Positions 19,519 to 49,170 of a DNA stretch of 64,000 nucleotides are shown piece after piece. How positions within the stretch are numbered: the first letter of the stretch is position 1; each line of letters begins with the position of its first letter. Below the pieces are notes generated by a model that saw only the letters and a list, made by a program, of their open reading frames with translations, searched no databases and was not told where the DNA came from. The stretch is from the sequence record PP400780. One strand, 5' to 3'. The stretch is from Escherichia phage FL18. Position numbers and translations under genes: made by a program.

Positions 19519-20154
19519 ATGAAAACTACTCCTATTACTATCGCTATTGACGCAATCATAAAACAAGCTTCTTCTTTGGCCGCTATGGCCAAAGTAATTA
19601 GTCAAAACCCTGCTCGTTATAATGCTATTCTAGAAACTCTTCGACGCCCTGGACTTAGTAATTATGAAAGCCGGGTAATTATTACAGGTGTTGGTAAGAA
19701 TGCTAATATCGCAACTAAAGCTTCCGAGACATTTGCTTCACTAGGTATTCCTAGCATGTATTTGAACACTGGGCATTATTCTCACGGTGATGCAGGATTC
19801 ATTGCGCCTAATGATGTGTTGATTCATATTAGTCGTTCTGGTAAGACTGAAGAAATGATAGGTGTTGCTAAACATCTTCGTATGATTCGTCCTCAGGTTA
19901 AACAGATTCTGTTACATTGTAACCCAGACATTCCACAAGAATACGAAGCTCTTTTTGATTATACGTTCTGTACTGGCATCGCGGTAGAGGTTGATGAGAA
20001 TTCTCTGGCTCCGACTATGTCCACTACATTGTTGTTAGCGCTTATCGATACGTTTGCTATCAACCTTTCGTCTGAACGTGGATTTACCTCTAATGATTTC
20101 CTTAAGTTCCATCCAGGCGGTGCACTAGGTGCCATGTTACGAGGCGAACAATGA
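19519..20154 (+). CDS. SIS-domain sugar-phosphate isomerase, arabinose-5-phosphate isomerase-like (KdsD/KpsF N-domain)
   Basis: 211 aa; VIITGVGKNANIATK, HGDAG, HISRSGKTEE, FHPGGALG match the KdsD/GutQ SIS signature; no CBS domains. Confidence 0.8.
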   Translation: MKTTPITIAIDAIIKQASSLAAMAKVISQNPARYNAILETLRRPGLSNYESRVIITGVGKNANIATKASETFASLGIPSMYLNTGHYSHGDAGFIAPNDVLIHISRSGKTEEMIGVAKHLRMIRPQVKQILLHCNPDIPQEYEALFDYTFCTGIAVEVDENSLAPTMSTTLLLALIDTFAINLSSERGFTSNDFLKFHPGGALGAMLRGEQ

Positions 20155-20280
20155 AAGCAATAACAATAGGACTTTTACTATTGATGCTTGTCATGACTAT
20201 CTACTGGAGCTTAACGGCTCCGGTAATGATTCCAACACTTGTAATTGGATGGATTATGATTGGACTACAAGCAAAGTATG

Positions 20281-20307
20281 AATGCTTTAACTAGAATAGT
20301 GTACAAT
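20281..20307 (+). promoter_or_regulatory. MotA-box middle promoter upstream of nucleotidyltransferase-kinase gene
   Basis: AATGCTTTAA box about 19-20 nt upstream of TACAAT -10. Confidence 0.45.
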
Positions 20308-20335
20308 ACTCCTACTTACCAATGAGGACTTTAAC

Positions 20336-22021
20336 ATGAAAAAAGCTGTTATTCTTGGTGCTGGACTGGCAACTCGTTTGTATCCAATAACGCATCATAT
20401 TCCTAAGGTGCTTGTTAACTATAAACAAGATACTATTCTGAGCAATTTGTATACAATTTATTCTGACCTTGGCGCAGATGAAATTATTGTAGTAGTTCAT
20501 TCAAAATTTGCTGAAACTGTTCGAGCTTATTGTGAACAAGAAGGGTTCAATGTGACTATTCGTACAGTTGATGAAGCGTATGGTTCTGCTTATGCTCTTG
20601 CTAAATTACACAAAGATTTAGACGGCCATAATGTAATTGTTAACTGGTGTGATATTATTCCTGATTTTGGTTCATGGTCTTGGAATGTTAACGCAATCTA
20701 TGTTAAGGGTGACGAATGTCGATATAATTTCGACGGTGAAAATATCACTAACGTAGGTTCAACAGGTGGTAATGTTGTAGGAATTTATCAGTTCAAAGAC
20801 TGGGAATTCTATATGGGTTCTACTGATGAGGAAATTCATGAATACTGCAAAGGACGTGATTTCGTAGAATTCCTTTACGGCAGCGCATTCAATAAATCAG
20901 AGCTTATGAATCTAATTGATTTAGGTGATATGCCTAAACTTGAAAAAGCTCATGAAGTTCGTGAACTTAATCGTAGTTTTAATGCAGTTGAAATTGGTGA
21001 AGAAACTGTAACTAAATTCGCATTAACCGAACAGGGTCGAGCTCTTCAGAAAGATGAGATTTCGTGGTATCTTAAAGTGAAATCAGATTCAGTTCCTCAG
21101 TTAGTTTCTGTTAATGAAAATAACTTTGAAATGGAACGCATTAAAGGTAAGCCTGCATTTGAATATATTAAATCCAAATCAAGTCTTGCTCGTCCACAAA
21201 TTGTTGATGCAATTTTAGATGCACTGAAATTCAGCACAGACACTTATTTTGTAAGTCCTGAAACTGTTCGTCGTGATTTCACTAAAGAATTCTATACGAA
21301 AGTTATTGATCGTTGTGAAAGCATTCAACCATTGATTGATTCATTTGGTAAAATCACACATGTGAACTACACTAAGATTGGACGTCTGAAGCCAATGCTG
21401 AAACAAGCTTTAGAACACCTCATTCGTTATCATAACCGTTCTCAGGGACAGTACTCTGTTATTCACGGTGACCCGAACTTCAGTAATACTATGATTACTG
21501 ATAATGGCGAAGTCAAGTTTATCGACCCTCGTGGATATTTTGGTGAAACCAAGATTTACGGGCCAAAATTGTACGATGAAGCTAAAGTGCTTTATGCTGT
21601 TTCAGGTTATGATGAATTCAATGCTAATCCGACCTGGGGGCAGTTTACTATTGATGAAACAACTTGTAATGTGACTATTAACATCAATCCATTAGTTTAC
21701 AAATATAGAAAGATGAGTTCGTTTAACGAGTATCATCATTTGGCAGTGGCAATTATCTGGATTGCATTAGGCGGTTATTTCAAGAATAATCCACTTAAAG
21801 CGGTAGCCGCATATTATAAAGGTATGGAACTTCTGACTAAGCAATTACGTAACATGGGCCGTGTACTTCAGGACGGCTCTATTAGTTATGACGTAGCAGA
21901 ACCTGTAACGGCTACTCTGATTACAAAAAATCCTGGTAAATGGGTACTAACTGATAAAGAAACTGGTGTTTCCTATCGTCCAATCGGTGGCGATATCACT
22001 CATCAATGGGAACGAATCTAA
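20336..22021 (+). CDS. bifunctional sugar-1-phosphate nucleotidyltransferase / APH-fold sugar kinase
   Basis: 561 aa; N-terminal AVILGAGLATRLYPIT nucleotidyltransferase loop; C-terminal HGDPNFSN...FIDPRG phosphotransferase catalytic/Mg loops. Confidence 0.75.
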   Translation: MKKAVILGAGLATRLYPITHHIPKVLVNYKQDTILSNLYTIYSDLGADEIIVVVHSKFAETVRAYCEQEGFNVTIRTVDEAYGSAYALAKLHKDLDGHNVIVNWCDIIPDFGSWSWNVNAIYVKGDECRYNFDGENITNVGSTGGNVVGIYQFKDWEFYMGSTDEEIHEYCKGRDFVEFLYGSAFNKSELMNLIDLGDMPKLEKAHEVRELNRSFNAVEIGEETVTKFALTEQGRALQKDEISWYLKVKSDSVPQLVSVNENNFEMERIKGKPAFEYIKSKSSLARPQIVDAILDALKFSTDTYFVSPETVRRDFTKEFYTKVIDRCESIQPLIDSFGKITHVNYTKIGRLKPMLKQALEHLIRYHNRSQGQYSVIHGDPNFSNTMITDNGEVKFIDPRGYFGETKIYGPKLYDEAKVLYAVSGYDEFNANPTWGQFTIDETTCNVTININPLVYKYRKMSSFNEYHHLAVAIIWIALGGYFKNNPLKAVAAYYKGMELLTKQLRNMGRVLQDGSISYDVAEPVTATLITKNPGKWVLTDKETGVSYRPIGGDITHQWERI

Positions 22022-22407
22022 TGCACCGTGTAGAAAACATGCTTAATCTTTGTTTTGATGTCGATGATTGTATAACAGAGTGGAATAACAATCGTGATTA
22101 CGTGAACTTCAAACCTGACGTCGAAATGGTGTCTGCCATTAATGCCCTGTATGATGCAGGGCATACCATAACGCTTTACACTGCTCGCGGTATGAAGTCA
22201 GTAGGTCCTGGACGTATAGCAATTGACATTCTCCCAAGTCTGATTCAGAACTTGGAAAACATTGGTTTGAAGTACCATAATTTGCTAACACATAAACCAG
22301 TATATGATTGGATTATCGACGACAAAGCTATGCGTCCTGACGAATTCAAAGCTCTTATGAATAAAGGCGAATTCGAAACATTTAAATCGTATAAACCGAA
22401 TCTATAA
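22021..22407 (+). CDS. HAD-superfamily phosphatase (KdsC-like size)
   Basis: 128 aa from ATG overlapping upstream stop (TAATG); HAD motif I CFDVDDCIT. Confidence 0.65.
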   Translation: MHRVENMLNLCFDVDDCITEWNNNRDYVNFKPDVEMVSAINALYDAGHTITLYTARGMKSVGPGRIAIDILPSLIQNLENIGLKYHNLLTHKPVYDWIIDDKAMRPDEFKALMNKGEFETFKSYKPNL

Positions 22408-22463
22408 TAATTTAAGTAAGACCTGCAAAAACCATCGCGTCAATTAACGTGAGATGCAAAAAA

Positions 22464-23624
22464 ATGAATACTTTTAAAATTGGAACGAATTTTGATTTAG
22501 CTCTTCTTGATAAAATCGTAGAGCTCAATAAAACTTATCCTAATAGCTTGATAAACGAAGTATACGGCTCTACAAGAGAAATGGCTTTTGTAGCAGCCAG
22601 ACCTGATTTTAGGCTTCCTGACGTTGACAAAAAGATGTTAGAAGATTACGTTAAACGTTGTAACGAATTAGGTATTTGCTTTAACTATACACTCAACACG
22701 ATAAATCCTGGTTCAAAAAGAGAACTAGTTGAGTGGAAGAAGAAAGCTATTCAGGATTATGTTCAGTATCTTTGGTCAATAGGTGTATGGCGTATTACTA
22801 TCGCTAACCCTGTTGTTATGGAAATTGTTCGTGAAGTCAATAAAGACATTGAGATTGAAGTTTCAACAATTCTACATGTCGATGCTGTAACTCAAATCAA
22901 ATACTTGCATGACCAGTATAATATCAAAAAGGTCTGCTGTGGAATTCATAAGAACCGTTCAGTTTCTTTCCTGAAGCGTGCAGCAGAGTTTTGCAATAAG
23001 AACAATATAATATTTGAAGTTCTTGTAAATGAGTTCTGTTCTAATGCTGGTAAAGGGTATACAACACATTGTAGCTATCGTGACTCTTGCTATATTTTCC
23101 ATAGTACTGATGTTACAGCTGATGATGCTAAATCCTTAAACGGATATCCTATGCAGCACTGTATTAAAGCTCGTGATACAGACCCATTTAACTGGTTGAG
23201 AACTCGTTTTGTTCGTCCTCAAGATTTGAAACTTTATAATGATATTGGTATCACTCAATTCAAAGTTTCAGGACGTACAGGTAGCACAGACTACATTTTG
23301 AAAGTTCTTGAAGCATACGCTTCTGAAAAGTTTGAAGGTAATTTGTTAGAACTGTGGAAGCCTTTAGAGACTATTTTCACTCTTGAAAACGAAACTGAGT
23401 TTTCACATACAGTAAATATTGAAACCTCTTTGTTAGATGGCTTTTTAGAAAAAAGGTGGTTCAGACATCCAGATTTCGATTGTGCTAATGAAATCTGCGG
23501 GACGACGTGTACATATTGTGAAAGATATTATAAACGTCAATTATCTAAAAACGGGTTAGCAGAAAACTCTATATCTATTATTGATATAACTAACTCTGAT
23601 GACGCTTTGAGGTACCCGGAATGA
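22464..23624 (+). CDS. U32-peptidase-family-like protein (TIM-barrel, Cys-rich)
   Basis: 386 aa from first ATG; N-terminal VYGS..FVAAR..NYTLNT resembles U32 barrel; EFCSNAGKGYTTHCSYRDSC cysteine cluster; family assignment tentative. Confidence 0.45.
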   Translation: MNTFKIGTNFDLALLDKIVELNKTYPNSLINEVYGSTREMAFVAARPDFRLPDVDKKMLEDYVKRCNELGICFNYTLNTINPGSKRELVEWKKKAIQDYVQYLWSIGVWRITIANPVVMEIVREVNKDIEIEVSTILHVDAVTQIKYLHDQYNIKKVCCGIHKNRSVSFLKRAAEFCNKNNIIFEVLVNEFCSNAGKGYTTHCSYRDSCYIFHSTDVTADDAKSLNGYPMQHCIKARDTDPFNWLRTRFVRPQDLKLYNDIGITQFKVSGRTGSTDYILKVLEAYASEKFEGNLLELWKPLETIFTLENETEFSHTVNIETSLLDGFLEKRWFRHPDFDCANEICGTTCTYCERYYKRQLSKNGLAENSISIIDITNSDDALRYPE

Positions 23625-23860
23625 TTTCTAGAAAAACTTTTAATCACCAACTTAATGAAGAGATTTTGACTACGAAACTGAACACTAACGAACAAATTCT
23701 TAAAAAGGCCCTTATGGGCCTGTTTGAAACCAAAGCGGCTAAAGTGATTAAAGGACCTGTTCAATTAGAATATTACGCTGATACATTTCTTCATAGTGTT
23801 CTTGGAAGTATCGATGCTGAAGCTTTACGTTATATCAACATTGCCAAGAAATTCAAATAA
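23621..23860 (+). CDS. hypothetical protein (79 aa)
   Basis: ATGA-coupled ORF inside the cassette. Confidence 0.5.
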   Translation: MISRKTFNHQLNEEILTTKLNTNEQILKKALMGLFETKAAKVIKGPVQLEYYADTFLHSVLGSIDAEALRYINIAKKFK

Positions 23861-23883
23861 GCTTTACGAATTGAGTATATAAT
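23859..23883 (+). promoter_or_regulatory. MotA-box middle promoter upstream of hydroxymethylase gene
   Basis: AAGCTTTAC box about 18 nt upstream of TATATAAT. Confidence 0.4.
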
Positions 23884-23902
23884 AAATTGTATTGAGGTAA
23901 AC

Positions 23903-24619
23903 ATGGGGAAACATAACACAATGAAATATATCAAAGCCGCAGATTTTCAAACCGCATTTAAAGCAGTCAATCGTGAAATTTTAGAAAACCCGGAATTCGT
24001 AACTGATTCTCGTATTGGACGTTGTAATGAAATTGGGTCTATGACAGTAGTTGTTGACACTCCATCATCATTCAAAATGACTGACCCACGTATTAACCGC
24101 ATCTCTTATGAATATGCCGAAGACTTCTGGAAGTTTATGATTTCTGGTGGTACCAACGCAGAAGAAGCGTTTAAGGCATATCCTAATGTCGCTAAATTTA
24201 TTTCTAAACCAAAATCAGATGTTTTGCCGGCGAACTTCAATACTTTCTATGGTCCTCGCATTGCGGCCCAATTACCAGCTCTTCTAAAAGAACTTAAAGA
24301 GAAGCCTAACTCTCGAAGAGTTGTGTTCCAAATTCTAGAAAGTTCTGATCAGGCTTTGCTTGATTCGGATGAAACGCTTGAATATCCATGTACTGACTCA
24401 GTGACTTATTATATTCGTGATGGTAAGCTTTATACCCACTGTCATATGCGTTCTCAGAACTGTGCTGTTGTTATGCAGTTGGATTTTTATCTCCAAGGAA
24501 AATTACTTCATTATATCGCTAACGAATGCGGTGTAGAAGTTGGTGATTATACTCATACCATGGTAAGTGCCCATGTGTTTGAACGTGATTTTGATTATGT
24601 TAAAGGATTCCTTGACTAA
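23903..24619 (+). CDS. thymidylate-synthase-fold pyrimidine hydroxymethylase, divergent (gene 42 position; likely dCMP hydroxymethylase)
   Basis: 238 aa; PNSRRVVFQIL, catalytic-Cys context YPCTDSVTYYIRDGKL, MRSQN, HTMVSAHVFERDF align with T4 gp42/TS motifs but overall divergent. Confidence 0.65.
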   Translation: MGKHNTMKYIKAADFQTAFKAVNREILENPEFVTDSRIGRCNEIGSMTVVVDTPSSFKMTDPRINRISYEYAEDFWKFMISGGTNAEEAFKAYPNVAKFISKPKSDVLPANFNTFYGPRIAAQLPALLKELKEKPNSRRVVFQILESSDQALLDSDETLEYPCTDSVTYYIRDGKLYTHCHMRSQNCAVVMQLDFYLQGKLLHYIANECGVEVGDYTHTMVSAHVFERDFDYVKGFLD

Positions 24620-25518
24620 TGGCTATTTTCCGCGTACCAATCTTGAGTATGCGGTCTTATGAAACTGGACAGTATGCTATCCTTAAGGATGGCAACTTCC
24701 AACTTCATTTGCACCGTGCTAATCCGGGTGATGTGATTACATATCCACGTAATGCATCTGATATTAAAGAATGCGAACGTCTTTTCCCAGAATTTAAGTT
24801 TGTTCCATTATGGTATAAAGATAACGCTTATAACACTCGTAAATATTTCTGGTCTGAAAATGAATTTGTGGTTGATTCATTAATTGCTTATTATGATTGC
24901 GATTTTCTAATCACAGATATAACTGGATATGACGGCGCTTTTGATGTAGAATTCAATTTCAATATCACTGCAGACCCTAATAAACCACGTTTTTATATTG
25001 ACGAATTCTTAAAAACCGACATGTTGTCGGTTAATCGTTCAATCCAAACAACTGTGTTGAATGAACGTCAAAAAGAAGTGCTGGTTAACGCAGGTGCAGA
25101 TGGTAATAAGATTATCGTAACGCAGAAAGTTATACGTCCTTCCATCATGCAGCGTCTTGTAGGTGATTTGGCTCCTATTTATCTAGATGGTATTTTTCAT
25201 CCATTTCGAATTAGTGACCCGTGCTATCGTTTTGAACAAGTGGTTGAATGTGCAATTCAATTAGGTCAACCGCTTTATATAACCGATCCAAATAATAGCT
25301 TTGACAGAAATAAGTATCCTGAAGAAGCGTTGATTCGAATTTTTAAACCAACTAAAACTGAGTACTATCAAATTCTTAAAGGACGTCCGAAGATTCAATA
25401 TTTCGAAAATCCTGAAGAGGTATTTCATCCAGGTCTTGGTGAGTTCATCTACTTTAATGCTTTAATTTCTTCACCGTATAATATACCTAAATATGAAGAT
25501 GTCGTAATCGAGGAATAA
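24619..25518 (+). CDS. hypothetical protein at beta-glucosyltransferase locus (candidate DNA sugar transferase)
   Basis: 299 aa; no similarity to T4 beta-gt noticed; function by position only. Confidence 0.5.
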   Translation: MAIFRVPILSMRSYETGQYAILKDGNFQLHLHRANPGDVITYPRNASDIKECERLFPEFKFVPLWYKDNAYNTRKYFWSENEFVVDSLIAYYDCDFLITDITGYDGAFDVEFNFNITADPNKPRFYIDEFLKTDMLSVNRSIQTTVLNERQKEVLVNAGADGNKIIVTQKVIRPSIMQRLVGDLAPIYLDGIFHPFRISDPCYRFEQVVECAIQLGQPLYITDPNNSFDRNKYPEEALIRIFKPTKTEYYQILKGRPKIQYFENPEEVFHPGLGEFIYFNALISSPYNIPKYEDVVIEE

Positions 25519-25519
25519 A

Positions 25520-26068
25520 ATGGCTAAAATTATTTTAGTAGATGGCCCGGATAATGCTGGTAAAACAACTTTCATTAATGACATAATGGAAATTAGTGAA
25601 AGATATGTAAAAATTGATTTCCCTAAACGAACAGTTGATGGACGTTTCGATGTTAAGTCTCGAAATGAAGTTGGCTGTTTTGAAACGATGTTGAATTATT
25701 TAGACCCTACTAAGATTTATCTGTTAGACCGTGGATATATTAGTAACTGGGTTTACGGACGTATTCGACAAGATGCGGACTCGGTTCTTGACGTTTATGA
25801 ACAGGATTATATTCGTCTTTGCCAAAACCATGATGTGTTCACAATTATTTTAACACGTAACGAAATGACTGAAAGTTTTGAAGACGACCTTATTACTTTG
25901 TCTTCATTCGGTTTTAATACAGTCATTTCACATTTTGAAGAGTTTGCAATTCATAACAAAATCCAAACGTATCAATTACTTAATCATGATGGTGCTAACA
26001 AAGTTATAGGATTTAATGCAAGCGAACGTAATGGTTTGATTACAGAAATCATCAAATGGGCTCGTTAA
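25520..26068 (+). CDS. P-loop nucleotide kinase, thymidylate-kinase-like
   Basis: 182 aa; Walker A VDGPDNAGKTT, LLDRGY (DRY/H-like) motif. Confidence 0.65.
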   Translation: MAKIILVDGPDNAGKTTFINDIMEISERYVKIDFPKRTVDGRFDVKSRNEVGCFETMLNYLDPTKIYLLDRGYISNWVYGRIRQDADSVLDVYEQDYIRLCQNHDVFTIILTRNEMTESFEDDLITLSSFGFNTVISHFEEFAIHNKIQTYQLLNHDGANKVIGFNASERNGLITEIIKWAR

Positions 26069-44456: not shown

Positions 44457-46274
44457 ATGATTAAAAATGAAATTAAGGTATTGACAGATGTAGAACATAT
44501 TAAGAAACGTAGTGGTATGTATATTGGTTCTTCGGCTAAAGAAGCACATGAGCGTTTTTTGTTTGGTAAATATCAACAAGTTGAATATGTTCCTGGTCTG
44601 GTTAAATTAATCGATGAGATTATTGACAACTCGGTTGATGAAGCTATTCGTACATCATTTAAGTTTGCAAATAAAATTGATGTGCAAATTAAAAATAATC
44701 AAGTTTCGGTGGAAGATAACGGACGTGGTATTCCTCAAGGTTTAGTTACTGACCAAACAGGTGAACAAATTCCTGGTCCTGTAGCGGCCTGGACTATTCC
44801 AAAGGCTGGTGGTAACTTTGGTGATGATTCTGAACGCAAGACTGGTGGTATGAACGGCGTCGGGAGTAGTTTAACTAATATCTTCTCTACGTTGTTTACA
44901 GGCATCACGTCAGATGGCGAAAACGAAATCACTGTTAACTGTTCAAACGGAATGGAAAACAAATCATGGTCTTCTAAGAAATCTAAAGGTAAAGGCACTA
45001 AAGTAATCTTCACTCCTGATTTCTCTTCATTTGAAGAACATAATTTATCTCAAATTTATTTAGATATTACTTTAGACCGACTTCAAACATTGGCAGTCGT
45101 TTATCCTGATATCAAGTTCACATTTAATGGTAAAAAGGTTGATGGTAATTTTAAACGATTTGCTAAACAATTTGGTGAAGATAACATCATTCAAGAAAAT
45201 GATAAAGTCTCTATAGCATTCACAACATCACCAGATGGCTTCCGTCATTTAACTTATGTGAATAACATCCATACTAAAAATGGTGGCCATCATGTTGAAT
45301 GCGTAATGGATGATATCTGCGAACATCTTTTGCCGGGTATTAAAAAGAAATATAAGGGTATTGAAGTCACTAAAGCTCGTGTTAAAGAATGCCTCACAAT
45401 GTTGATGTTTATTAGAGACATGAGCAACATGCGTTTTGATTCTCAGACTAAAGAACGTTTAACGTCAACGTATGGTGATATTCGTAATCATATCCAATTA
45501 GATGCTAAGAAAATTGCTCAGGCACTTCTTAAAAACGAAGCCTTGATTATGCCTATTGTTGAAGCAGCATTAGCTCGTAAATTGGCAGCAGAAAAGGCTG
45601 CAGAAACTAAAGCAGCTAAAAAGGCAACTAAAGCTAAGGTTCATAAGCATATTAAAGCTAACCAATGTGGTAAAGATGCAGATACGACATTGTTTTTAAC
45701 AGAAGGTGATTCGGCAATTGGTTATCTCATTGATGTTCGTGACCGTGAACTACACGGCGGATTCCCATTACGTGGTAAGGTGATGAATAGCTGGGGTATG
45801 TCATATGCTGATATGATGAAGAACAAAGAGCTCTTTGATATCTGTGCTATCACAGGTCTTATTCTTGGTGAAAAGGCAGAGAATACGAACTATCGTAATA
45901 TTGCAATTATGACCGATGCCGATCACGACGGTCTTGGAAGTATTTATCCTGCTTTGCTTGCTTTCTTTAGTAATTGGCCCGAATTGTTTGAACAAGGACG
46001 TATTCGCTTTGTTAAAACACCTGTAATTATTGCACAAATTGGCAAAACTCAAAAATGGTTTTATACTGTAGCTGAGTATGAAGAAGTTAAAGATACACTG
46101 CCTAAGCATAGTATTCGATACATCAAGGGATTAGGCTCCCTTGAAAAGTCAGAGTATCGTGAAATGATTCAGAACCCTGTGTACGACGTAGTTAAACTTC
46201 CTGAAAATTGGAAAGAACTCTTTGAAATGTTGTTGGGTGATGATTCAGAACTTCGTAAAGAATGGATGTCCTAA
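44457..46274 (+). CDS. 39: type II DNA topoisomerase large (ATPase/GyrB-like) subunit gp39, unsplit
   Basis: 605 aa continuous; GHKL motif IDEIIDNSVDEA, TOPRIM-like region; no separate gene 60 follows. Confidence 0.92.
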   Translation: MIKNEIKVLTDVEHIKKRSGMYIGSSAKEAHERFLFGKYQQVEYVPGLVKLIDEIIDNSVDEAIRTSFKFANKIDVQIKNNQVSVEDNGRGIPQGLVTDQTGEQIPGPVAAWTIPKAGGNFGDDSERKTGGMNGVGSSLTNIFSTLFTGITSDGENEITVNCSNGMENKSWSSKKSKGKGTKVIFTPDFSSFEEHNLSQIYLDITLDRLQTLAVVYPDIKFTFNGKKVDGNFKRFAKQFGEDNIIQENDKVSIAFTTSPDGFRHLTYVNNIHTKNGGHHVECVMDDICEHLLPGIKKKYKGIEVTKARVKECLTMLMFIRDMSNMRFDSQTKERLTSTYGDIRNHIQLDAKKIAQALLKNEALIMPIVEAALARKLAAEKAAETKAAKKATKAKVHKHIKANQCGKDADTTLFLTEGDSAIGYLIDVRDRELHGGFPLRGKVMNSWGMSYADMMKNKELFDICAITGLILGEKAENTNYRNIAIMTDADHDGLGSIYPALLAFFSNWPELFEQGRIRFVKTPVIIAQIGKTQKWFYTVAEYEEVKDTLPKHSIRYIKGLGSLEKSEYREMIQNPVYDVVKLPENWKELFEMLLGDDSELRKEWMS

Positions 46275-46299
46275 GCTCCTTCGGGAGCTTCATTTTAAT
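46274..46299 (+). terminator. intrinsic terminator-like hairpin
   Basis: AGCTCC-TTCG-GGAGCT followed by T-rich tract. Confidence 0.5.
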
Positions 46300-46316
46300 T
46301 TTAATAAGGCTTAATT

Positions 46317-47417
46317 ATGAAAGTTATGTTTATCCCATCTCGCGCAGTCCCATTTAACCCAGAACGTGTACAAGGTGGTCTTGAAGCAGTACATTTAAAT
46401 GTGTTGAAATATCTTGTGTCCATCGGTGCTGATATTGATTATATCGGCTTTGATAATGACACGTTTGGTGACTGGAAGGTTAATCATCATCCTGTTGGTC
46501 ATCTGACTAAATTCAGTCTAGGTATGAGTTATACTATGGCTCGTAAGATTGTTGAACTAGCCGGCATTAATGAGTACGATTTCGTTGTTACAATGGAACC
46601 GACCAAACTAACCGTTCAGGCAATTAAAGACGCAGGTCTCTCTAAAGTTCATAAGAATTTTATGGCAACACCATTTGAACCAGTATCTCGTGGCATTGTT
46701 CAAATTTGGGACCAGACTATTCAAATTCATAAGAACGGTGGTAAGAGTTATGCTCCTACTAAAGCCTTCCGTGAATTTGAACGCAAATATTGTTATATGA
46801 CTTCAGGTCTGACTGACAAAATTGATTATGATTATTGGCGAGCAAATCCGTTGTTTGAAGCCGAAGATTATCCGGTTATTTGTTTGAATGATAAACCTGA
46901 AGTTCTTCCGGCGACGGATCTGATTATTAGTGCACAACGTTATGACACTAAAATGCGTCGTACTGATGTTGCTCTTGAAGCGATTAAAGCACTAGGCGAA
47001 AATGGTGCAGGATACTGTCCAAGCAAATGGGCGCCACCGGCTAAATATCCTGTTATTATTGATGCTCCACACAGTGAAATTATGGAACGTCTTAAAACAG
47101 CTAAAGCACTTATTAATACGTGTCCTGACACAGGTACGGTAGAGAATAGTTCTATTGAAGCCATCTCTAAAGGTGTCCCTGTAATCCAGTTAGTTTTTAA
47201 GGATTATCCTCATGCGACATTTGAATACGACCCAGATACTGTGCGTGTAGAAATTGATTCCTCTACTCCTAAGAAAGAAGTAGTTGCGCTTTACACAAAA
47301 GCTGTATTAGAATTCACTGACACATACGAAGCTCGAGTTAAACGTGCTGAAGCTGTATGGAAGAAGTATAACCGAGATGCAGTTGTTGCGATGTGGGATA
47401 AAATCTTCACAGCGTAA
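46317..47417 (+). CDS. GT-B fold glycosyltransferase (candidate DNA sugar transferase)
   Basis: 366 aa; N-terminal MKVMFIP..GGLEAVH Rossmann start; C-terminal TGTVENSSIEAISKGVPVI resembles the GT4 E-x7-E donor-binding motif. Confidence 0.6.
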   Translation: MKVMFIPSRAVPFNPERVQGGLEAVHLNVLKYLVSIGADIDYIGFDNDTFGDWKVNHHPVGHLTKFSLGMSYTMARKIVELAGINEYDFVVTMEPTKLTVQAIKDAGLSKVHKNFMATPFEPVSRGIVQIWDQTIQIHKNGGKSYAPTKAFREFERKYCYMTSGLTDKIDYDYWRANPLFEAEDYPVICLNDKPEVLPATDLIISAQRYDTKMRRTDVALEAIKALGENGAGYCPSKWAPPAKYPVIIDAPHSEIMERLKTAKALINTCPDTGTVENSSIEAISKGVPVIQLVFKDYPHATFEYDPDTVRVEIDSSTPKKEVVALYTKAVLEFTDTYEARVKRAEAVWKKYNRDAVVAMWDKIFTA

Positions 47418-47509: not shown

Positions 47510-47710
47510 ATGAGAACATATAACGTGGACTTGGAACTTTTTGATAAAGCAGTGCTCCGGGAATTCCGGCTTATCCAAAGATTTTTTGATATCGAGTCAG
47601 CAGAGTCCTTTAAAGAACGCTTTAAAGAAATTCGATATAAAATACAAACCGATACAGCTACTAAAGAAGAACTTCTCGAAGTGGCAGAAATTTTTAAACG
47701 TAACTTGTGA
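47510..47710 (+). CDS. hypothetical protein (66 aa)
   Basis: ORF between glycosyltransferase and rIIA. Confidence 0.45.
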   Translation: MRTYNVDLELFDKAVLREFRLIQRFFDIESAESFKERFKEIRYKIQTDTATKEELLEVAEIFKRNL

Positions 47711-47722
47711 TGAGAGAAAAAT

Positions 47723-48677
47723 ATGATTATTGAAACGGCTAAAGAAACGATTATTGGTTCTGGTGGTAAAAGCACAGCATTTACTATTCAAGGCAATAGC
47801 AAAGTTTATAAGATTTTGTCTAATGACCTTTATACAAACAAAGAATTGGCTTGTGTACGTGAATTAATCACAAACTGTATCGATGGACAAATTCTTAATG
47901 GTTGCACTGATAAGTTTATTGTTCAGGCTCCAGGTCGTTTAGACCCACGTTTTGTAGTTCGAGACTTTGGTCCTGGTATGAGTGATTTCACCATTCGAGG
48001 TAATGACGAAGAGCCAGGAATCTATAACTCATATTTTGCTTCAACTAAAACATCGAGTAACGATTTCATTGGTGGATTCGGACTCGGCTCTAAAGCTCCA
48101 CTAGCATATACCGATACGTTTAACATTACTTCTTATCATAATGGTGAAGTTCGTGGTTATGTAATTTATCAAGATGACAGTGGTCCACAGATTAAGCCAA
48201 CCTTCGTAGATAAGATGGGTCCTGATGACCGGACCGGCGTTGAAGTAGTTGTGCCTGTTAACCCAGAAGATTTTGAAAAGTTCGCATCCGAAATTGCATA
48301 TGTTATGCGTCCTCTAGGTGATATTGCAGAAGTTCGCGGTGTTAAAGATATCAAATACTTTCCTGAATTCGATGATGTTTATTTAGCCAAGGAAGCTCCA
48401 TGGGGTGAACGTGGTAATATCATGGCTGTTTATGGTGGTATTGTATATCCAATCGGAAGTGTTATTAAAGAACAAACCTGGATGATGACGCGATGCACAC
48501 TACGGCTGGTTAGAATGCAACGAAGTTGTTATTGAAATCCCACCGGTAGATGCAGAATATCTTGAAGAAGGAGACCGCATTTATTTTGGCGAACTACACA
48601 TCAGAGGTATCTATGGTAAAGACGAACTTGGGGCTGTTGAGGCTGAAGAGTCTTCCGACATTTATCCTGTCGAATGA
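47723..48677 (+). pseudogene. rIIA: rII-locus remnant: rIIA N-terminal portion (270 codons) followed by a frame-shifted protein-like segment
   Basis: N-terminus close to T4 rIIA as recalled; frame stops at 48535; another frame stays open 48489..48677 with protein-like sequence. Confidence 0.55.
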
Positions 48678-48693
48678 GTTTTTGACTAGCGAA

Positions 48694-49170
48694 ATGAAGG
48701 TTAAGATCGCTGATACTGCTCGGTACTCGTTGAAACAAGATCCAGACCAAAACAAAGAAGATGTAGTTCGACGTTGTAAGGTTGCGGTCTTTGCAGAGTA
48801 TGTAGTAGCAAATTGGCTAGACGGATATGTTAATAAAGGTATTGAAGACGTAGAAGACCCGTACACGTATGCATGGGACGTGTTAGCCCATCCCAAGTAT
48901 TGTGGAATTCGTGTAGAAGTCAAGACACACCAGATAGATTCTAAATGGATTTCGGTTACCACAGGATACAGTGGTGATTATCCGGGTGGTAATGGAATCA
49001 ATATAGGGCCCTTCCTTAATCATCGAGTCGCAGATTGCATTATTATATTAGATGTCAAAGAAACCTCACCTGACGTCTTCTCTTATTCTATAAAGTTCGT
49101 GGGAGACCATGAAGACCTAAAGAAAATCGTCCGTAAGAGCAACTACAACGGGTGGTATCTTCATCTTTAA
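48694..49170 (+). CDS. hypothetical protein, possible PD-(D/E)xK nuclease (denB candidate by position)
   Basis: 158 aa from ATG in ORF 48550..49170; D...EVK motif (WDVLAHPKYCGIRVEVKTHQ); upstream of ndd as denB is in T4. Confidence 0.4.
   Translation: MKVKIADTARYSLKQDPDQNKEDVVRRCKVAVFAEYVVANWLDGYVNKGIEDVEDPYTYAWDVLAHPKYCGIRVEVKTHQIDSKWISVTTGYSGDYPGGNGINIGPFLNHRVADCIIILDVKETSPDVFSYSIKFVGDHEDLKKIVRKSNYNGWYLHL

Follow-up and report, generated by a model that had tools for sequence, protein, structure and literature searches.

The 366-amino acid (aa) open reading frame (ORF) between gene 39 and rIIA.1 of Escherichia phage FL18 encodes a GT-B glycosyltransferase, which almost certainly belongs to a DNA modification pathway and uses a UDP-sugar. 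The enzyme is probably a second, extending β-arabinofuranosyltransferase that converts α-arabinofuranosyl-5-hydroxy-dC to a β-1,3-linked disaccharide, as suggested by the phyletic pattern of the family, the biochemistry of its paralogues, and a published assignment. Gene, fold, pathway, and probable step are already known from publications of 2018 and 2025–2026, and the finding of the ORF is a rediscovery. What is added here are corrections to the initial annotation of the sequence: the modified base is 5-hydroxycytosine, the sugar cassette has a GT-B protein of its own, and the distant gene most likely encodes the enzyme for the second sugar. Whether DNA is di- or monoarabinosylated affects which restriction and defense systems a therapeutic Mosigvirus escapes.

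The Transferase Gene and Its Neighbors

The analysis covered 64,000 nucleotides of the FL18 genome (record PP400780), in the following called the window. The ORF is found at 46317..47417 on the plus strand, where the initial annotation had placed it, and the two peptides quoted there are present in the translation, MKVMFIPSRAVPFNPERVQGGLEAVHLNVLKYL at the N terminus and TGTVENSSIEAISKGVPVIQL at residues 272-292. The ATG start codon is preceded, at a distance of 7 nt, by an AAGG ribosome-binding site (46306..46309, plus strand) that was read from the sequence. Upstream lies gene 39 (44457..46274, 605 aa). The first 473 residues of its product share 79% identity with T4 gp39, and its orthologue in the RB69 record is an unsplit 39/60 topoisomerase subunit. 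Directly 3' of the gene 39 stop, and before the transferase gene, the plus strand contains a UUCG-tetraloop hairpin (AAGCTCC-TTCG-GGAGCTT, 46273..46290). The downstream neighbor is rIIA.1 (47510..47710; Pfam T4_RIIA1, 2e-30), followed by rIIA. T4 carries gene 60 and mobA at this site, as had been pointed out, and in addition gene 60.1.

A chance ORF can be rejected. In 64 kb of the composition of the window, about 2e-7 open frames of 366 codons are expected, the pairwise dN/dS values of the gene against three orthologues are 0.03–0.09, and a ribosome-binding site is in place. The ORF is a real gene under strong purifying selection. The protein matches phrog_8302 over residues 1-366 of 366 (E 3.6e-222). 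It is 98.9% identical to RB69 ORF003c (gp3, NP_861693; 4 substitutions) and 97.3% identical to the HY126 glycosyltransferase XAN60436 (10 substitutions), both of the same length. Both are orthologues of the FL18 protein: their genes lie at the same site, both genomes carry the same cassette, and nothing suggests a functional difference. The order gene 39, transferase, rIIA.1 is common to the FL18 window, RB69, HY126, HX01, and 348Ecol098PP. At the nucleotide level the gene matched 155 phage records with 90–99% identity, all of them RB69-like Escherichia or Shigella phages (Mosigvirus), with vB_Eco_NicPhage as the best match (99.2%). The window is from a Mosigvirus of the RB69 group.

In AV116, gene 39 and the transferase gene are separated by a homing endonuclease gene (AV116 segment 1..75), which recalls mobA at the same site of T4. 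JK45 has the full transferase gene and, after it, a partial duplicate of the 3' part that spans 136 codons (JK45 segment 2694..3104). The LH01 gene is split and annotated as two ORFs.

Fold and Donor Binding

When the family profile was compared with the PDB, one solved protein was found (E 2.5e-195). It is represented by the entries 9IQZ, with the title "phage HY126 glycosyltransferase," and 9IR0, the same "with UDP" (released 2025-07-16, Foldseek library). The proposed GT-B fold was thus borne out by a 97%-identical orthologue solved both as apoprotein and with UDP. The AlphaFold2 (AF2) model of the FL18 protein, based on an alignment of 6 sequences, was poor (pLDDT 60.8, N-terminal domain below 50) and was used only for Foldseek. 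The Foldseek search with this model returned 9IR0 and 9IQZ first and then the GT-B enzymes PimA, tll1591, BshA, WaaG, and LmbT. E values of about 1e-8 were obtained for PimA (2GEJ), BshA (3MBO), WaaG, and tll1591, the nearest folds after the orthologue. The 366-aa protein has a GT-B fold, a conclusion that rests on the solved orthologue and not on the model. By homology to the UDP-bound HY126 protein in 9IR0, the C-terminal domain is predicted to bind a UDP-sugar donor. In the C-terminal part, the motif TGTVENSSIEAISKGVPV is kept across the family.

The protein had also been described as a GT4-type retaining enzyme with an E-x7-E-like stretch, a classification that found no support. No Pfam family was found in the ORF, even at E≤10, and the gathering score of Glycos_transf_1 (PF00534) was reached only by an outlying relative, P0016 (34.6 versus 26.4 bits). 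P0016 is a genuine member of Glycos_transf_1 and aligns with residues 248-352 of the 366-aa protein at 35% identity. Of the two Glu residues in its motif PDE-SFGITAL-EALS, the first is aligned with Thr272 and the second with E281, which is invariant in the 366-aa family. The conserved pattern of the family itself is TGTVE276-x4-E281 and not the canonical E-x7-E. A likeness to bacterial GT4-type enzymes is seen in the nearest folds and in the C-terminal EA(I/L)SxGxP(V/C) helix, which aligns with P0016. The protein differs from them in that it scores below every Pfam threshold, has the first Glu of E-x7-E replaced, and would act on a DNA-borne sugar. Characterized GT4 enzymes are retaining, whereas the linkage proposed here is β.

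The glucosyltransferases of T4 are absent from the window, as had been stated. In tblastn searches with both T4 proteins, the best match of α-glucosyltransferase had an E value of 2.7 and β-glucosyltransferase gave no match, and both syntenic T4 sites, one flanked by genes 55 and 47 and the other by gene 42 and uvsX, fall inside the window. A relationship of the 366-aa ORF to either enzyme at the sequence level was rejected, with no significant tblastn match and no shared Pfam family. The T4 α-glucosyltransferase (PDB 1XV5/1Y6F) and β-glucosyltransferase are likewise GT-B DNA glycosyltransferases that use a UDP-sugar, and HHpred links RB69 ORF003c to 1XV5 (Thomas 2018). Their acceptor, however, is hydroxymethylcytosine (hmC), whereas the acceptor proposed for the FL18 enzyme is a sugar on 5-hydroxycytosine.

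The functional analogue would be found in T2 and T6. Their β-α-glucosyltransferase acts as a second transferase on DNA that already bears a sugar and forms gentiobiosyl-hmC, a disaccharide on cytosine. Sugar, donor, and acceptor base differ from those proposed for the 366-aa enzyme, and a sequence relationship would not be expected.

The Sugar Cassette and the Acceptor Base

The distance of about 20 kb between the transferase gene and the sugar-nucleotide genes was confirmed, with the latter forming a cassette at 19.5–26 kb. The whole cassette (19519..26068) is 97–99.7% identical to that of HY126, and all of its genes are on the plus strand. It starts with a SIS-domain protein (19519..20154; Pfam SIS), 99% identical to an HY126 protein annotated as D-arabinose-5-phosphate isomerase, which would catalyze the first step toward UDP-arabinofuranose. 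The next gene encodes a putative UDP-arabinose-making bifunctional nucleotidyltransferase/kinase of the RB69 gp52:53 and HY126 AfhE type (20336..22021; Pfam NTP_transferase, kinase-like C terminus; function according to PMC13326640). It is followed by a small phosphatase of the RB69 gp51 and HY126 AfhF type (22006..22407), which had no Pfam match, is 99% identical to its HY126 orthologue, and is assigned its function in PMC13326640. Downstream of a thymidylate synthase homologue (23903..24619) and a 299-aa GT-B protein (24619..25518), both described below, lies a nucleotide kinase-like protein orthologous to RB69 gp45 (25520..26068; 98% identity to HY126, 46% to the "thymidylate kinase" of Acinetobacter phage Apostate; PMC13326640, Table 1). 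After the kinase gene comes uvsX.

The middle of the cassette is occupied by a peptidase-U32-like protein (22449..23624; Pfam Peptidase_U32, 7.5e-11). It has no counterpart in the cassette of Apostate, and the literature lists for it only a possible "sugar or heterocycle reductase."

The acceptor base in the initial annotation was hmC, which is outdated. The thymidylate synthase homologue (Pfam Thymidylat_synt) matched the HY126 structures PDB 9iqc/9ir2 over its full length with a phmmer E value of 8e-161 and is nearly identical to them; its identity to the HY126 protein in GenBank is 98%. Its identity to T4 gp42 is only 25%, compared with 76–96% to T4 for the core genes 39, 47, and 55. This low identity fits a predicted 5-hydroxy-dCMP synthase better than a dCMP hydroxymethylase. 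For RB69 gp48, formation of 5-hydroxy-dCMP and not hydroxymethyl-dCMP was shown (PMC13326640). In RB69 and NicPhage DNA, arabinose is attached to 5-hydroxycytosine via an ether bond (PMC13326640, PMC13390438). RB69 DNA contains β-D-arabinofuranosyl-(1-3)-α-D-arabinofuranose (β-D-Araf-(1-3)-α-D-Araf) on O5 of 5-hydroxy-dC (PMC13326640), and NicPhage DNA contains 5-ara-dC and 5-ara-ara-dC (PMC13390438).

The 299-aa protein, the orthologue of RB69 gp46:47, is a candidate for the base-proximal α-arabinosyltransferase. It had no Pfam match, but a model based on 57 homologues showed a confident GT-B fold (pLDDT 95.2). The GT-B fold of RB69 gp46:47 was published earlier by Lee et al. and is reproduced here for the FL18 orthologue. 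The same authors label gp46:47 "arabinosyltransferase 1" and gp3 "beta-arabinosyltransferase 2." No sequence relationship was detected between the 299-aa and 366-aa proteins, either by profile-profile comparison (hhalign probability 0.3%) or by BLASTP, and their genes are 21 kb apart. Members of the 299-aa family were detected in 350 phage records, among them those of Dhakavirus JS98, phages of Klebsiella, Edwardsiella, Yersinia, Proteus, and Pseudomonas, and Serratia phage LC53. The presence of this more widely distributed GT-B protein within the cassette displaces the 366-aa ORF as the best candidate for transfer onto the base.

Distribution of the 366-aa Family

The 366-aa family is very small. 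An exhaustive phmmer search of 1.84 billion representatives gave 16 matches at E≤1e-3, and a word-indexed homologue search gave only 5 clusters. In the phage collection, family members were present in 211 records, namely Mosigvirus, 55 Acinetobacter phages, and one Tegunavirus, and none was found outside these groups at E≤1e-3. Among the records listed, Mosigvirus has one copy and the Acinetobacter phages have two. In Apostate, the two paralogues are 43% and 41% identical to the FL18 protein and 57% identical to each other. They are placed directly after the cassette genes for kinase, GT-B protein, ThyA homologue, phosphatase, pyrophosphorylase, and isomerase. This location of the Acinetobacter homologues supports one part of the role initially proposed, a place in the pathway that puts sugar onto DNA; the other part, transfer of the first sugar to hmC, was not sustained.

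The homologue in the single Tegunavirus record has less than 60% identity and could belong to a further diarabinosylating lineage. Matches of the other Yersinia Tegunaviruses were confined to the 299-aa family.

Order of Action

Across a handful of chemically characterized phages, the number of 366-aa family copies correlates with the number of arabinoses on cytosine. LC53 has no copy and one arabinose. RB69, NicPhage, and Bas46 (the copy number of Bas46 was not individually checked) have one copy and mono- plus diarabinosylated cytosine. DLP3 carries up to three arabinoses and probably two copies, judging from its gp76-gp83 gene order, which matches that of Apostate. The single arabinose in LC53 DNA and the two in Bas46 DNA are reported in bioRxiv 10.64898/2025.12.19.695335.

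By gene order, the DLP3 proteins gp76 and gp77 are the counterparts of the Apostate paralogues orf069 and orf070, which are related to the FL18 protein over their full length and keep the GG loop, the QR, and the TGTVE-x4-EA pattern. In combination, gp76 and gp77 extended RB69 DNA in vitro by a third Araf, with UDP-Araf as the donor (PMC13326640). The two systems differ in that the DLP3 enzymes are adjacent paralogues within the cassette, are needed together, and build the third sugar through a β-1,5 linkage, whereas FL18 has one distant copy. Because sugar number follows copy number and the Acinetobacter pair extends di- to triarabinose, the FL18 enzyme is most likely the second, extending transferase. 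The same step, addition of the second, β-linked arabinose, is proposed for RB69 gp3, with the base-proximal sugar being α-linked (PMC13326640). Transfer of Araf from UDP-Araf to arabinosylated DNA has been shown only for the gp76/gp77 pair, and for RB69 gp3 it is a proposal; an experiment on the activity of the Mosigvirus 366-aa enzyme itself was not found in the accessible literature.

We infer the acceptor and the linkage of the 366-aa enzyme, as well as the role of the 299-aa protein, in the following scheme. The thymidylate synthase homologue would make 5-hydroxy-dCMP, an activity established for its orthologues in RB69 and HY126, and this nucleotide would replace dC in phage DNA. The cassette genes at 19.5–22.4 kb would convert ribulose-5-phosphate to UDP-D-arabinofuranose, a route partly shown for HY126. 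The cassette GT-B protein (24619..25518) would then add α-D-Araf to O5 of the base. Finally, the soluble 366-aa enzyme would use the same UDP-Araf to add β-D-Araf to O3 of the first sugar. The product would be β-Araf-(1-3)-α-Araf-5-hydroxy-dC, the structure found in RB69 DNA, and the enzyme would act late in the DNA hypermodification of RB69-like (Mosigvirus) phages. The second sugar would be accessory and may provide steric protection against nucleases or defense systems that are still active on monoarabinosylated DNA. In PMC13216743, which cites Mahler 2025, Bas46 without an arabinosyltransferase (Aat) is described as viable and sensitized to a defense system.

Alternative Functions

It is improbable that the published order is wrong or incomplete for Mosigviruses. 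In such a case the 366-aa enzyme could glycosylate 5-hydroxycytosine itself or could act only in complex with the unrelated 299-aa GT-B protein. Equally improbable is an inverting β-arabinofuranosyltransferase on a GT4-like scaffold that has lost the first Glu of E-x7-E.

Placement of the 366-aa enzyme at the base, where it would add the first arabinose to the modified cytosine and leave another role to the 299-aa protein, is unlikely. It is the model of 2018 and of the initial annotation, with hmC replaced by 5-hydroxycytosine. ORF003c was proposed as DNA arabinosyltransferase by Thomas et al. in 2018, and the Bas47 orthologue is annotated as "putative hmC-arabinosyltransferase" in BASEL. He et al. 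crystallized the 366-aa protein of HY126, also with UDP, and not the 299-aa protein, of which there is no structure. This could mean that they treat the former as the main transferase, and the choice weighs against a role in second-sugar transfer. A further point against our assignment is that DNA glycosylation has never been demonstrated for the 299-aa family. For the Thanatos homologue, the only reported activity is formation of UDP-xylose in vitro, which is pyrophosphorylase-like, and transfer to DNA was not seen. However, the narrow distribution of the 366-aa family is difficult to reconcile with an enzyme for the first sugar, because LC53, Thanatos, and many other genera have a cassette with 5-hydroxy-dCMP synthase and a pentose on cytosine. 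Moreover, none of the DLP3 glycosyltransferases acted on 5hoC DNA by itself (PMC13326640), yet the family members of this phage extended diarabinosyl DNA.

Still less probable is a 366-aa enzyme that has no autonomous activity and installs the disaccharide jointly with an obligate partner, either the 299-aa GT-B protein or further copies of itself. The precedent is the DLP3 pair, which is active only in combination, and entry 9IQZ, with chains up to at least H, is compatible with oligomers. Pairing of the gp76/gp77 type is unavailable to Mosigviruses, however, since they have a single family member, and neither the sequence comparison with the 299-aa protein nor the distance between the two genes points to a partnership. 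Glycosylation of a non-DNA acceptor (host LPS, a phage protein, or a small molecule), unrelated to DNA modification, is highly improbable. The structural neighbors PimA, WaaG, and BshA are indeed lipid, LPS, and small-molecule transferases, but the 366-aa family occurs only in phages with a 5-hydroxycytosine arabinosylation cassette, is part of that cassette in Acinetobacter phages, and has paralogues that act on DNA in vitro.

A Deletion in the rII Region

Downstream of the transferase gene and rIIA.1, the rII region of FL18 (47723..49170) is shortened. The rIIA gene is reduced to a stub of 270 aa, and the next gene, joined directly to it, encodes a DenB-like endonuclease (48550..49170; phrog_1360). 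Compared with HX01, about 2.54 kb are missing, comprising the part of rIIA from approximately codon 259 onward, the complete rIIB gene, and an ORF of 78 nt. The deletion junction at approximately 48490..48498 lies in an 8-nt microhomology, CGATGCAC, that is present at both breakpoints. Among 159 matching phage records, the junction was shared only with AV116 (OR352946.1). FL18 and AV116 are collinear at 96.3% identity and thus represent two diverged isolates with the same rII deletion.
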